Position numbers: made by a program
Assembly: GCA_040437565.1 (NCBI GenBank)
Contig: JBDOQK010000012.1
Location: forward strand, 62,001-126,000
Length of the DNA stretch: 64,000 nucleotides
Direction of reading: 5' to 3'
Source of the DNA: Albugo candida
Taxonomy: Eukaryota
Part shown: positions 18,001-24,000 of the stretch, in pieces
Position numbering within the stretch: the stretch's first letter is position 1
Layout of the letters: every line of letters begins with the position of its first letter

Positions 18001-21000
18001 AGAATGAGATCCATGTTTGAGTCGTACCACTTTATCTAGAACAAAAAAGCCCACAATACCTGCAATCGTCCACAGCCAAGCCCTCAGGTCTGACAGAGTG
18101 TGACTATGCTTATAGTTCAATGAAGTTCCATGATCGGAGAAAGATTCATCGTGATGAGTATGAATTGACATAGAGTGAGGCATAAGATGTAAAAATGCAT
18201 CTCCTAGTAATCCACCTGCTGTAAATCCCAAAAACGCCCGCAACGAGTTTTTTTGCTCAAGCCTGGAGCCAATCCCAGTCGGTATGAAGATGAGAAATGC
18301 TATTGGAACGGATCCAATTATAACGGTAGCCATAACTGCTTCTAACCACACACTCAATGNNNNNNNNNNNNNNNNNNNNNNNNNNNNNNNNNNNNNNNNN
18401 NNNNNNNNNNNNNNNNNNNNNNNNNNNNNNNNNNNNNNNNNNNNNNNNNNNNNNNNNNNTCGATTACTGAATGAGAATGAGATCCATGTTTGAGTCGTAC
18501 CACTTTATCTAGAACAAAAAAGCCCACAATACCTGCAATCGTCCACAGCCAAGCCCTCAGGTCTGACAGAGTGTGACTATGCTTATAGTTCAATGAAGTT
18601 CCATGATCGGAGAAAGATTCATCGTGATGAGTATGAATTGACATAGAGTGAGGCATAAGATGTAAAAATGCATCTCCTAGTAATCCACCTGCTGTAAATC
18701 CCAAAAACGCCCGCAACGAGTTTTTTTGCTCAAGCCTGGAGCCAATCCCAGTCGGTATGAAGATGAGAAATGCTATTGGAACGGATCCAATTATAACGGT
18801 AGCCATAACTGCTTCTAACCACACACTCAATGCATATCGTGTCAATTCGATTTTTTCATCCGGATGATGTTGATGATGTTTGGATTGTTGCTCCTGTTCC
18901 ACAAAATCTGCCCTGTTCTCAACAGATTTAACTGGTAGATTTCTTATTGCTTCGTCTTCAAAAGCGTTGTCTTGAATGACATTAGACCCTCCATTGGTAC
19001 CTAATATCATCACGAGAAGCGCACCTATAACAAACATGTGGAATTGTCTGCCTTCCATAGTTGTGGTACACAGGAACGATGAATCAGAATATCCTCAGAT
19101 CGAGCTTGCGAATGTATCTGATAATAAGAGAATAAAATTTTTTTCCAAAACATGAAAATCAAGGAGGCATTTCGTGTTTCGCGATGTTGGCGAAAGGAAA
19201 CAAAGCTTGTTTGTCTATTTATGTGAGATCGGCTCGATCAAAGCAGGCTGTGATACACAAGTATCGACAAAAATAGATCTCCTGGTGAGCTTCGTATAAA
19301 CCTCGCTCAACTCGAAGGATGCAATAACACGCATTATTTCGTTTCATAATCAAACAACAATCTGATCCCCAATGTTAATGTTGATGCATTCTAATATTTG
19401 GTATGACACCTTGTCGTTGTTTACCAAATACTTTGCTGGTCTCGAACATGAACATATATGCCTGACAAATTGGAGGTGAAGCCCTCCAAGAAAATGCTTT
19501 TATTTCTCATTCCAGCTATGATGTACCGGCTAGTCCGTGTTACGATTTTGAATAAAGGTGTTTCCTTTTTCCCAGAAATTCTGAACAAATAAGTGAATCT
19601 TCAGACTGAATTGATTGAAAATCATACGTGGCGTCGAACCAGCTACTTACTGTTGACAAAGCTGAAAGCCTAATTTATCGTCACTATGTCGCACAGAATG
19701 TCATTAAAGCAAATTCAGTAAGCAGATCATCCCTTAAAATCAAACCTACGAAGCCCAAACAAGCATAAAGCTTTTGCGCAGGCGGCCTCTTGGGCAGCAG
19801 ATACAGAGATTCCTCGCCCTCTTGCGACCATGAAATCGTTTACATACAAAGCTACTGCAAAACGACCGTGGGAGTCAGCAGAATTGATGCGAAGTCTCTT
19901 GAATGTACACCGAGTGCGTTTGCGGTTCAGTTTATCCCATGAAAGCAGATAACGTCCGAACGATTGTATCGGACTCTGCCACTCGCGCCTTTCGATCACT
20001 GCAACAATATCATCCAACATAACACGTTTTAGCATTTGCGTGACGAATGCCAAACTACCGTCGTTCTCCAGGAATAAGAATCCCAAAGTTGCATTAAAAA
20101 TTCGAACAAGTATATCAACATTGATATCTGTTTCTTCTTCCGGGTCGTCAGAAAATAAAGGAAGCAAGTGAAGAAAACCTGCCTTTCTGATTGTTGCGAG
20201 CCGTTGTTCATTATTTGTGGCGCATGAATGAACTCGGGGTAGCAGTTCATCTTTGGAGCATGGAAATGCGTGGATCAGAAAAACTGCTACGACCATATCA
20301 ATCATCGCTTCTCCAAGGTGCATTATCCATAAAGACTCCATAACTTTGATTGAACGTGCCGTAACCTCTAAATTCGACCAGCAATTTTTGATGTTCTGAA
20401 TCCAATGACTGATCCTTACAATCTTCACATCCGTAAATGTGGTGAATTGTTGGTGAAATGCATCTGTATACGTGGACTCTATAGATCGTTCTAATTGAGA
20501 ATTTGAGCTATTTCTCACAACTTTTATGATTTTCTCGACTCGAGTGAAAGCTAAGCGGAGTTTTTCCGCATTCGATTTTTCTGAAAACTCGATCAAGAAA
20601 GCTTGACAACGCTCGATTCCAGATTCCAAGTAGATTGCGCCGATCAGCGCTTTAATGCAATTTTCAAGCATGCTCTGCTTGGTTTTGCTACAACATGGAA
20701 AGGAGCTAAACACAGCGTGCAAAGTCAACAATTTTTGAGCTCACCTCTTCAATGTGGAAAGATCAAACGCGCTCTGTAGAATAGAGTCCATACCCGCTGA
20801 TTCAGCAATATATTTCACTGTTGCATCCAGGGTACGGATCGATAATTCTTCCGCATGATTTTCATATACGTCCGTTGTGTCGGTATATAAAGAGGATGCT
20901 GCTAGGAATTTGAGCACTTCATTTCCGAGAAATGCTAAGCGGTCTTGAGAGCATGGTTTGATTGCAGCTGAATCTTGCCTGTGATTCTGCTTTGTGTGAT

Positions 21001-24000
21001 CACGATCATTGTCAAATTTTACAAATTTTCGTTTTTTTAAGTTGGCTTCTGGAATGAATATGTGTCCCATCCGAACTCTTGCAATCGTGGCCTCTACAGT
21101 ATTGACGCTTTGCATTCCTACATCGAAGAAGGAAGTATGTGTGCAGGCACGAAGCATCAAGGCCATATCTCTCGGTAAGCTCTTGAAGTTTTTTGTGAAG
21201 CTAAAAGTGAGTTTACAGTGCCGAACGTGCTTGAGAATTACTGGCATTGCTGCCCCGAGCTCAAATACATCTGTACGTAGACCTGTCAAGTTGCACAGCT
21301 CAGGATCCAACGAATGAGTCTCTTTCTCTACTTTTGGAGGTATCTGAAGAAATGGTCCTTTCTCTTCCCATCTAGTGATAAGTTTTGATTTACTGGATCC
21401 GTCGGAGCCTTTTCCAATATGTTGCAAATGGATAGATGGTAGTGATTCAGCATCTTCACTACTCTTCGGGAGCTCGCTGTTCAAATCTTTTCGATCTTCA
21501 TGTTCCAATTTGGCAGAGCAGCCTTTTTTTACAACAGCATCAACACGAAATGCTGCAGGCTCACCATTCACCCGAGTCGAAACAATACAATCAATCAGTT
21601 GGGAAGGCTTAAATTCCGCGAGAAATGCGGTTGCTGCAAATCTGGAAGTCATCTCTAAATATTCCAAAATTCTTGTCAAAGGCAGTAGGGAACCAGAACC
21701 AAAGCCAATTCGACGAGGATCATGCAAAGCTTCCATATTCTCTACAGTTGCATTCGTGACAAGAATAAAACGTGGAATAATATGAAAATCTGCCACTTCA
21801 TCCACGTGCCCAAACGGAAGATCATCTCGACGTGAATATAAATGCATGGGTTGAATACCAAGCAGCTGAGCAAAAATATAATGCTGTAATAAATACAGTG
21901 CTCTGCTTTCTTGTGGTTTTATGTATTGCCTCTCGTCGTTCTCACCTTTCAATGACAATAGAGCCGATGGTATATCTTCCGGTATGTATGTTATTTTACA
22001 TTTGATGTCGTGGCGAGTGTACTCGAGCTACAATAAAAGATCTGTGATCAGTACTGGTACGGTATTATGCGAGGTTAGCGGCAACCCCGACTTTAAAAAA
22101 ACATTGCGTACAGCTGGAATCTTCGGAGGCATCTCGTTTTGATTATGATACAATACAAGAAAGCCATCGAAAAGATAAACTTCATTGCTGAATCGGAAAG
22201 CTGTCTTCTCCCCACAACGTGGATTTGCTACATTCAAGATAAAGAAATCTCACGTCTGATCGAAGTTGTATAACAAAATGTTGATGTACCTTCCGCTTCC
22301 CACTTGAGACGTAAGCCCATCAGAGCATCACAAGAAGACGATACGAAAAGGAGATCATTTGTAATTCGTTTTTGTCCATCAATATCAATAGCATTCGCTC
22401 CATATACTGCGCTCATGTGATGTGACGTAGTTGTTCGATCGCCATTATTGCATGACATAACTGAAAATACTGAAAATTAACGATATCGACTCAAATGGAG
22501 GCAAGTCCAAGCGATCAAAATGAGAGCTTACGATGTGGTATTTGCAATCATACAGGACCCATAAATAGGAATCATCCCGTTCAATGCAGAGAATGTGGCA
22601 GAGCTGTACACATAAGACACTGTTATGAGACAACAAACGAAATTTGGACGTCTGGTGAACGTTGTGATGAATGCCGGTACCCTTCTGTACAAATTAGACG
22701 AAAATGTCTTCTGTGTGACACGGGATCCACGGACATAATGTGTTATATCCAAAATGTAAACAAGCACATTGAAAAATTTCAAAATGAATCGGAAACAGGA
22801 ACCTGGTGTCATGCTCTCTGCTTTCACTGGTTGGAGTATACACGAAACATTGGGTTTGATGATACATTGTTTTCGTCAGCCGATCAAGAATGTGCATACT
22901 GCTCGTCAAGTTCGGGTCATGTCATAAAGTGTTTCGGAAAAGACTGCGAGCAGTACGTTCATGCACTTTGTGCACAAAATAATGAGGCTTTAATAGCACG
23001 GCCATGGAAGTATAATTCTGACATTCTGTTACACTATGCGGGATGTAAGAGGCATAAAAAACAACGATATACTACAGAATCACTGTGCAGATTATTAGGA
23101 AGTTCACAAGTGCAACGATGCTTGGAGGCCGATACTGTCAAATACCTGACGACAATTGAAGAAGAAATGCTAGCTGTGCATGATACTGAGGCTCTATTAG
23201 TGCTCTTGCGAAGCATCACAAGTCGGGTAGAATCCGATTGCACTTCTCTCAAGTCGGAGGATGACAATCGGTATGATATCCGACGCTTGCAGCTTCTCTA
23301 TTTAGTGCTCTGTAAAGTCGAAGAGATTGGAAAGGCATACGGAATACATCGGAAATCTCTCGGTGTCAGTAATTTCTTGAATTCTGCTGATCTAGCAGAT
23401 ACGTTGGTGTGCTTGTTCGATCCCGCAACAAATAGACCAGATCATACAGGCCCTTTTAACTTGATCGACCCATGCAGAGTATGCAAGAAGCCATTTTATC
23501 AACGTCATCACGTATTCTATTGTCTCAATGAAAAGGAACCACATTCGCAGCACTGGAAGTGTACTTTGAGCAAGACAGACGATCCGAGCCCAACGCTTCG
23601 CAAAGGGAAAAGCATCAAATCGAGTGCTGAAAGAGCTGTGAAGTCTGGTGGCACTCTAATCATGGAGGTGGGCACTAACAAATTGTCACAATTCCCAGGA
23701 CCGATTCCGCACTCATTGAAACAAAGTCACACGTGCGGCATCTGCGGATCTCTTATCGACCCAAGATCGCTGTTGATGTCTTCAGAAGATGAAAACTTTG
23801 TGCAGCGGTATCAAGCGCAGTCATCTCGGTACCAGTCATCCGGAAGAAATGTCAATTGTTCACCTGACTCAAAAAAGGAAAATCGGAAAAGAATAGAACA
23901 GATGGTTGAGGACGGTGAGGACACCCTGATAGCATACTCCAAACGAACCAGAACGAAGGAGATTGGTGGCGGAACCTCAGAGGAACATCGACTACAACCT

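Follow-up and report, generated by a model that had tools for sequence, protein, structure and literature searches.

What becomes of an RNase III enzyme of the Drosha/Dicer class when the residues that hold its catalytic metal ions are replaced? The question is raised by a gene on the minus strand of a 64,000-nucleotide stretch of the Albugo candida genome (GenBank assembly GCA_040437565.1, contig JBDOQK010000012.1, positions 62,001 to 126,000), hereafter called the window, whose own numbering is used throughout. The gene is the A. candida orthologue of the oomycete protein DCL2, which is Drosha-like and has no helicase, and the consensus ExxGD and DxxE motifs are absent from both RNase III domains of its product, where none of the eight core residues is found. 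It is rather likely that Albugo DCL2 is a retained RNase III pseudo-nuclease with the acids replaced in both domains, which would act by binding without cleavage. A Drosha/Dicer-class protein retained with both nuclease centres dead would be an uncommon kind of pseudoenzyme.

A part of this deviation is on record. Oomycete DCL2, known from Phytophthora sojae, P. infestans and P. capsici, has been treated by Fahlgren (2013) and Bollmann (2016), and the name DCL2 as well as remarks on a likeness to Drosha are found in published work (PMC10080066, PMC4791657). In the available sections of Bollmann et al. 2016 (PMC4791657), DCL2 is argued to be nevertheless more Dicer-like because of its PAZ domain. 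The same paper (PMC4791657, section 17) gives the RNase IIIa of Albugo laibachii DCL2 as variant in both motifs and the RNase IIIb as variant in the second motif; the passages available neither interpret this nor offer data on expression or on constraint. A preliminary description of the present locus was unaware that the A. laibachii case is already published. Among the matches listed for Albugo together with DCL2, only that paper and a 2018 paper on AGO concern oomycete DCL2, and the latter is silent on catalytic residues in the parts available. What the present analysis adds is the copy in A. candida, the evidence for its splicing, the constraint seen domain by domain and a separate loss in Aphanomyces astaci and A. 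invadans.

Catalytic core and gene model

The core was examined in an alignment of 36 homologues picked from 143 phmmer matches and the members of their clusters. The Albugo motifs align to ERLEFLGD and [D/N]xxE of the relatives, and the motif columns are bordered by the invariant residues R458, L459, G463, G539, A540 and G648. Each domain has four core Mg2+ positions, which we take to be numbered E40, D44, D107 and E110 in Aquifex RNase III. In A. candida they read A, N, N, K in RNase III domain a (RIIIDa) and M, E, R, N in domain b (RIIIDb), with none of the eight residues kept; in A. laibachii they read A, N, N, R and M, D, R, N, with one kept. The core is intact in 26 of the 31 homologues that cover all eight positions, with E, D, D (or the Drosha-type N) and E in the first domain and E, D, D and E in the second, and the five exceptions are three Albugo and two Aphanomyces sequences. 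Four further rows cover only some of the core positions and are canonical at those, and the remaining row covers none. The preliminary description had quoted four motifs and claimed from them that the acids are lost in both domains; all four are present in the minus-strand translation, they align with those of human DROSHA and of the oomycete DCL2 proteins, which mostly keep the acids, and the claim is supported, as no core residue is kept.

The Mg2+-holding carboxylates were replaced in the Albugo lineage by A, N, N and K in domain a and by M, E, R and N in domain b. Because these carboxylates are replaced in both domains, the cutting of double-stranded RNA (dsRNA) by A. candida DCL2 is almost certainly lost. 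The activity retained would be the binding of structured RNA or of protein partners, with the protein serving as a scaffold or a sequestering factor. Lys535 and Arg718, which would stand at former metal sites, could touch the RNA backbone directly, by analogy with the E-to-K mutants of RNase III. The E. coli rnc70 mutant (E117K) is one of these, and it is said to bind its substrate without cleavage. K535 stands at the position equivalent to E110 of Aquifex aeolicus RNase III, and the structures of the E110K mutant of that enzyme (PDB 1rc7 and 1yyo) are complexes with dsRNA according to the titles of the entries. The bacterial mutants are engineered or laboratory single changes in homodimers, whereas the Albugo change is natural, is accompanied by six or seven others and occurs in an intramolecular pseudo-dimer. 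The label "pseudo-nuclease", as applied to A. candida DCL2, follows from the sequence only.

It is quite improbable that the protein is still a nuclease which employs acids that remain or have been relocated (D457, E531 and E649, the last being D in A. laibachii), a different metal geometry, or pairing with an active RNase III, for instance DCL1. Such an enzyme would be favoured by the acidic residues left near the motifs, i.e., D457 and E649 (D in A. laibachii), by the relocation of catalytic residues known in some pseudoenzymes (PMC10211241, in the part available) and by the pairing of the RNase III pseudoenzymes of the editosome with active partners (PMC6800513, likewise). However, seven of the eight core positions of A. 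candida are non-acidic, and the lysine and arginine found at two of them would repel Mg2+. A single equivalent E-to-K replacement is sufficient to inactivate bacterial RNase III, reportedly so for E117K in E. coli and, to judge from the titles of the PDB entries, for E110K in Aquifex. Besides, the predicted model packs both domains as in DROSHA and Dicer, which would leave no free face for dimerisation.

The gene model was compared with independent records. The spliced product of 842 residues shows no differences from the A. candida "hypothetical protein" KAL0589429.1 (P0144); another A. candida record, CCI10309.1 (P0145), departs from it at 26 residues. The sole match of the exon 4 open reading frame (ORF) among longer proteins is AlNc14C11G1368 of A. 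laibachii Nc14 (F0W2Y9, 841 residues), whose exon junctions agree with the model presented here. Evidence for splicing was drawn from four public sequencing runs (X5, X7, X10 and X20) compared with positions 19600-22600. None of the runs listed as containing the gene is on record as RNA; their kind was guessed, X10 being taken for RNA and X5 and X7 for DNA. In X10, one contig of 2600 nt with a depth of about 90 spans 19651-22453 and lacks exactly the three introns listed in Table 1; the gaps end in CT..AC on the plus strand, and the introns are present in X5 and X7. Because cDNA yields just such contigs, free of introns and with gaps that end in splice sites, the X10 contig is read as transcript-like. 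Variants with a 33-nt intron 2 and a 39-nt intron 3 were ruled out by the alignment with A. laibachii and by the X10 contig. Run X20 contributes a small share of short pieces belonging to another A. candida allele, and its assignment to another species was ruled out.

The acids are not restored by correct splicing or alignment, a way in which the original claim might have failed, because the introns are seen skipped, the product is identical to a database record and the core codons carry no variants. These codons are untouched by the seven coding single-nucleotide polymorphisms (SNPs) of the four runs and by the 28 amino acid polymorphisms found among seven A. candida protein versions. The idea that the loss is only apparent, produced by a faulty gene model, a misassembly or misaligned residues, can draw on the N runs in the window, on a duplicated flank 1.3 kb away and on the partial gene models of several relatives. 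Against it, the two intron-keeping runs cover the gene with at most four coding differences, none of them at core codons, the splice pattern is confirmed by the contig, the same substitutions recur in the separate record of A. laibachii and in that of the second A. candida protein, and the alignment columns are bordered by invariant residues. An artefact is hardly credible here and is already refuted as far as present data go.

Fold and relatives

The assignment to oomycete DCL2 as a Drosha homologue, made in the preliminary description, is borne out by phmmer, Foldseek and structural alignment. A phmmer search with the A. laibachii orthologue against 1.84 billion representatives returned 143 matches with E no greater than 1e-3, of which 12 have E no greater than 1e-30. 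The named matches among the ten checked belong to Phytophthora, Aphanomyces, Saprolegnia and Achlya, share a common architecture and range from E 2.5e-143, for P. oleae (P0003), to 1e-38; the top named matches are only from oomycetes. In a quick maximum-likelihood tree of 19 rows selected from alignments of 36 and 15 rows, Albugo is placed as sister to the group containing Phytophthora (SH-aLRT, the approximate likelihood ratio branch support, 95). The Albugo proteins are 35-36% identical over their full length to Phytophthora proteins, with which they are grouped in the tree and whose arrangement they share: a central domain followed by a pair of RNase III domains and a dsRNA-binding domain (dsRBD), without a helicase. 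They are distinct in having a shorter N terminus and a shorter insert in the dsRBD. They also differ in the core: Phytophthora, Saprolegnia, Achlya, Aphanomyces euteiches and Aphanomyces stellatus keep E-D-D-E twice, whereas Albugo keeps none or one of the eight residues. Within the genus, seven of the eight core substitutions of A. candida are matched by type in A. laibachii (A, N, N, K/R, M, R, N), and at the RIIIDb LGD position A. laibachii keeps D where A. candida has E.

By Pfam, domain a of A. candida is matched by PF14622 with 60.7 bits (cut-off 35) and by PF00636 with 45.1 bits (cut-off 27); in a Phytophthora orthologue two stretches are matched, with 155 and 137 bits. RIIIDb gives no separate Pfam stretch in the full protein and aligns structurally to Aquifex RNase III with Z of about 15. 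The Pfam dsrm and PAZ families have no matches in the six oomycete orthologues scanned, and for this reason the dsRBD and PAZ-like assignments rest on the fold and on alignment. An identity with the mitoribosomal protein mL44 was considered and rejected, the match over the whole length being Drosha; the corresponding family PF22935 is absent from A. candida at E up to 0.01 and stays below the threshold in A. laibachii (23.3 bits versus a cut-off of 27).

Among proteins of known structure, human DROSHA is the best sequence match (E 2.2e-13), followed by bacterial RNase III at about 2e-3 and Giardia Dicer at 0.47; the alignment to DROSHA spans the helix before RIIIDa, both RNase III domains and the dsRBD. 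The AlphaFold model, made from the 36-row alignment, has a pLDDT of 76.3 and a pTM of 0.78. In the central domain the pLDDT is mostly 75-94, and this part aligns to the portion of DROSHA that precedes the RNase III domains; in the connector region, helices are predicted at residues 347-354 and 356-373. Foldseek places DROSHA at ranks 1-9 (E 4.6e-26 to 7.7e-17), with Dicers from 4.5e-16 onwards. The VIA-align comparison with DROSHA 6v5b gives Z 28.1 over 669 residues (30-835 of the model, 445-1337 of the chain), and the Dicers reach Z 27.3-27.4 with 560-600 residues aligned versus 666-676 for Drosha. With the Z-scores tied, the fold alone does not separate Drosha from Dicer; by aligned length and by sequence E-value, DROSHA is the closest solved structure. 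The 669-residue alignment and the conservation of 23 of 26 invariant positions in the N-terminal part also agree with the earlier view that the platform, connector and dsRBD are retained.

Animal Drosha (PDB 5b16, 6v5b, 6lxd and 9asm) is the best solved relative both by sequence and by Foldseek. It has, as Albugo does, N at the first position of RIIIDa motif 2. Its catalytic acids cut one strand of the pri-miRNA per domain, and these core acids are replaced in Albugo. Animal Drosha carries a long N-terminal region rich in Pro and in Arg/Ser. An extension of this kind is absent in A. candida, where about 40 residues are predicted to be disordered and order to begin at about residue 41.

RNase III folds without catalytic residues are known from the editosome KREPB partners (PMC6800513) and mitoribosomal mL44, where, in the text available, binding or structural roles are ascribed to them; mL44 chains are found among the weak Foldseek matches of the Albugo model. 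These are single-domain proteins of other lineages, which operate in trans or within the ribosome and have no Drosha-like central domain as in Albugo. A. candida DCL2 falls into the class of RNase III pseudoenzymes in that it has the fold without the metal-binding acids and that its retention can be deduced from the ORF, the spliced contig and the domain-wise conservation.

Constraint, possible decay and parallel loss

The DCL2 proteins of A. candida and A. laibachii are 70% identical, and in both species, which differ at 30% of the residues, the frame of 842 codons and all three introns are intact; within A. candida the ORF is open in several strains. The identity between the two species is unevenly distributed: 80% in the central domain, 63% in RIIIDa with the connector, 63% in RIIIDb and 74% in the dsRBD. 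The central domain stands significantly above the RNase III domains (p 2e-6). Eight catalytically intact oomycete sequences, used as a reference, have 117 invariant columns. A. candida keeps 66 of the 109 non-catalytic ones versus none of the eight catalytic ones (Fisher p 9e-4), and the columns kept in both Albugo species amount to 23/26 in the central domain, 19/40 in RIIIDa with the connector, 10/28 in RIIIDb and 5/8 in the dsRBD. Polymorphism follows the same division. Among the seven A. candida protein versions, with positions 119 and 121 dropped as start-codon artefacts of the ORF caller, six polymorphic residues fall in the central domain and dsRBD (382 residues) versus 22 in residues 341-760 (420 residues; p 0.006).

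The rate of change was judged against neighbouring genes. Between two A. candida strains DCL2 differs by 3.09%, while six neighbour genes differ by 0.55-2.28% (pooled 68/4955 = 1.37%, p 9e-4). The Cu-ATPase encoded in the window differs by 1.47% between the strains and is 86% identical to its A. laibachii orthologue, i.e., 14% of its residues differ. The ratio of DCL2 to Cu-ATPase divergence is about 2.1 both within A. candida and between the species, and the rate of divergence would be far below that of unconstrained sequence. A burst of change on the Albugo stem (1.18 per site) was considered and dropped: no burst is claimed, because the Cu-ATPase has a similar ratio of Albugo-Phytophthora to Albugo-Albugo divergence. 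A metagenome scan for DNA of a relative gave 58 pattern matches and no relatives.

Several of the observations weigh against retention. DCL2 changes faster than the other six window genes for which the two strains were compared. The RNase III domains are eroded beyond the catalytic residues (60.7 versus 155 bits by Pfam), which fits slow decay as well. The coding SNPs comprise five non-synonymous and two synonymous changes, pN/pS being about 0.7, although seven are too few to tell. In addition, the X5 contig, dated 2011, is one base short in each of two T7 runs of exon 3, at 21032 and 21524; the gaps are unseen in the other three runs where these cover the sites and are probably homopolymer read errors, the alternative being a real frameshifted allele in that strain.

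These four observations are what one would expect if the gene were on its way out, under selection relaxed after the loss of catalysis in an obligate biotroph, with the transcript and the frame as leftovers. The ancestral role may moreover be dispensable, as DCL2 of P. capsici is reported, in the portion of the paper available, to be unneeded for the canonical miRNA miR8788 (PMC11062530). We regard such a course as unlikely. The frame and introns have outlasted a divergence of 30% of the residues, the constraint is domain-specific, with the central domain the most conserved part, DCL2 has diverged only about two times as much as a conserved Cu-ATPase, within A. candida as well as between the species, and the spliced contig has a depth of about 90. 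Nor does biotrophy alone explain the loss of the acids, because DCL2 of the biotroph Hyaloperonospora is included in the data set of Bollmann et al. and is not a listed deviant there, as far as the available text goes (PMC4791657). It seems from the sequences compared that purifying selection on Albugo DCL2 is weaker yet persistent and relaxed mainly in the nuclease domains, and a retained pseudo-nuclease fits better than a decaying gene. The suggestion in the preliminary description that the small-RNA pathway of this obligate biotroph is decaying is not supported: the ORF is open in both species, a spliced contig exists and the constraint differs from domain to domain.

The pathway around the protein also appears in the literature. 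According to the accessible sections of the papers, DCL1 and RDR of A. laibachii are in the published data set, where DCL1 is not a listed deviant (PMC4791657), and homologues of AGO I and AGO II have been reported in Albugo spp.; by these papers on A. laibachii and Albugo spp., the small-RNA pathway around Albugo DCL2 is not gone. DCL2 of P. sojae is described there as nuclear (PMC4791657), and DCL2 is suspected of making the small RNAs of 25-26 nt in oomycetes. If Albugo still makes this longer class, DCL2 would not be its maker; by title or abstract, no study of Albugo small RNAs appeared among the papers matched on this subject. A DCL2 with dead sites that is conserved and expressed would argue that a part of the job of DCL2 is independent of cutting.

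A second case of acid loss was found in Aphanomyces astaci (five sequences: P0200, P0008 and P0203-P0205) and A. invadans (P0011), both of which are animal pathogens. Here, too, the acids are lost in both RNase III domains. The residues in RIIIDa are D, A or K (V in one truncated A. astaci sequence), D, D and K, and the last position of RIIIDb, where covered, is Q or V. All eight core positions are canonical in A. euteiches (P0201), A. stellatus (P0202), Saprolegnia parasitica and Achlya hypogyna. The A. astaci and A. invadans proteins are less eroded than those of Albugo, with only four of the eight core positions changed, 82-85% of the invariant positions kept and a Pfam score of 122 bits. 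In the 19-row tree the dead state needs at least two changes, the Albugo clade and the clade of A. astaci with A. invadans each having an SH-aLRT of 100; by this topology, the loss in Aphanomyces is independent of that in Albugo. The publications found on Aphanomyces with Dicer and RNase III include none on catalytic loss, as far as titles and abstracts tell, and Aphanomyces is absent from the text of Bollmann et al. 2016 (PMC4791657). The two pathogens and their sister species with an intact core make up a natural comparison set.

Albugo and A. astaci share three of the RIIIDa replacements, namely E37D, E40A and E110K. Tentatively, it may be proposed that the ancestral DCL2 had a cleavage-independent function, such as the binding of hairpins or nascent RNA in the nucleus through the central domain and the dsRBD, and that this function alone was kept after at least two losses of catalysis, in Albugo and in the animal-pathogenic clade of A. 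astaci and A. invadans. Because the same replacements (E to D, E to A and E to K) were made both times, selection for a substrate-trapping, non-cutting state would be suggested over random decay.

Gene boundaries and neighbouring genes

The coordinates of the gene and of its parts are collected in Table 1.

Table 1. Features of the A. candida DCL2 gene in the window (aa, residues of the 842-residue product).
Feature	Position	Strand	Remarks
Whole coding sequence, A. candida DCL2 (Drosha-like) orthologue	19727..22458	-	4 exons, 2529 nt, 842 aa
Exon 1, annotated ATG 22458-22456	22290..22458	-	X10 contig covers only up to 22453
Second in-frame ATG (M15), possible true start	22414..22416	-	End of X10 contig and A. 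laibachii model
Intron 1, 62 nt, GT..AG	22228..22289	-	Absent from X10 contig, kept in X5 and X7
Exon 2	22112..22227	-	
Intron 2, 84 nt, GT..AG	22028..22111	-	Junction agrees with A. laibachii protein
Exon 3: most of central domain, connector, first half of RIIIDa	20745..22027	-	
Intron 3, 57 nt, GT..AG, within RIIIDa	20688..20744	-	
Exon 4: second half of RIIIDa, RIIIDb, dsRBD, stop TGA 19729-19727	19727..20687	-	
N-terminal central domain (platform/PAZ-like), ~aa 41-340	21293..22338	-	Includes introns 1 and 2; boundaries approximate
Connector-like helix region, ~aa 341-373 (LTGLRTDVFELGAAMPVILKHVRH...)	21194..21292	-	Aligns to DROSHA TGIRSDVCQHAMMLPVLTHHIRY (phmmer, A. laibachii orthologue)
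RNase III domain a, ~aa 383-565	20561..21166	-	Includes intron 3; Pfam match
RIIIDa motif 1 DRLAFLGNEV, aa 457-466	20915..20944	-	A460 for E, N464 for D
RIIIDa motif 2 ENCIKALIG, aa 531-539	20639..20665	-	N532 as in animal Drosha, K535 for E
RNase III domain b, ~aa 592-760, strongly eroded	19976..20482	-	Weak PF00636 (exon 4 ORF), structural alignment
RIIIDb motif 1 IMHLGEAMID, aa 644-653	20297..20326	-	M645 for E, E649 for D
RIIIDb motif 2 VRIFNATLG, aa 717-725	20081..20107	-	R718 for D, N721 for E
C-terminal dsRBD, ~aa 761-835, helix, three strands, helix	19751..19975	-	Model, DROSHA dsRBD alignment
Optional 70-nt intron, GT..AG, 3' of stop codon	19581..19650	-	X10 record joins 19580 to 19651 (loose end)

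The DCL2 gene forms a head-to-head pair with a plus-strand gene for a PHD-finger protein, whose ATG at 22495 is separated by 36 nt from the ATG at 22458. The X10 contig of DCL2 stops at 22453, 3 nt short of the first ATG, contig ends being weak evidence, and the X10 contig of its neighbour starts at 22471. For this reason the first ATG may lie outside the transcript, and M15 (22416), the equivalent of which is the start of the A. laibachii protein model, may be the real start codon. At the other end, a second X10 record reads through 19581-19650, i.e., retains the optional intron, which may belong to the 3' untranslated region of the DCL2 gene or to the 5' untranslated region of the next minus-strand gene. 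The latter encodes a ZIP-type transporter, and its ORF starts near 19060.

The same stretch of the ZIP-transporter gene is repeated at 17990-18359 and 18460-18829, on either side of a run of 100 N (18360-18459); the repeat probably arose in scaffolding and does not reflect a true duplication in tandem. The Cu-ATPase gene lies at 55025-58483, and the A. laibachii orthologues of Cu-ATPase and DCL2 are F0W2Y3 and F0W2Y9. The adjacency of these UniProt accessions hints, as a suggestion only, at a linkage of the two genes conserved between the two Albugo species. A phosphodiesterase gene is located at 24931-26859 on the plus strand, and an N run near its 3' end breaks the ORF, which appears as a run of X in the translation.

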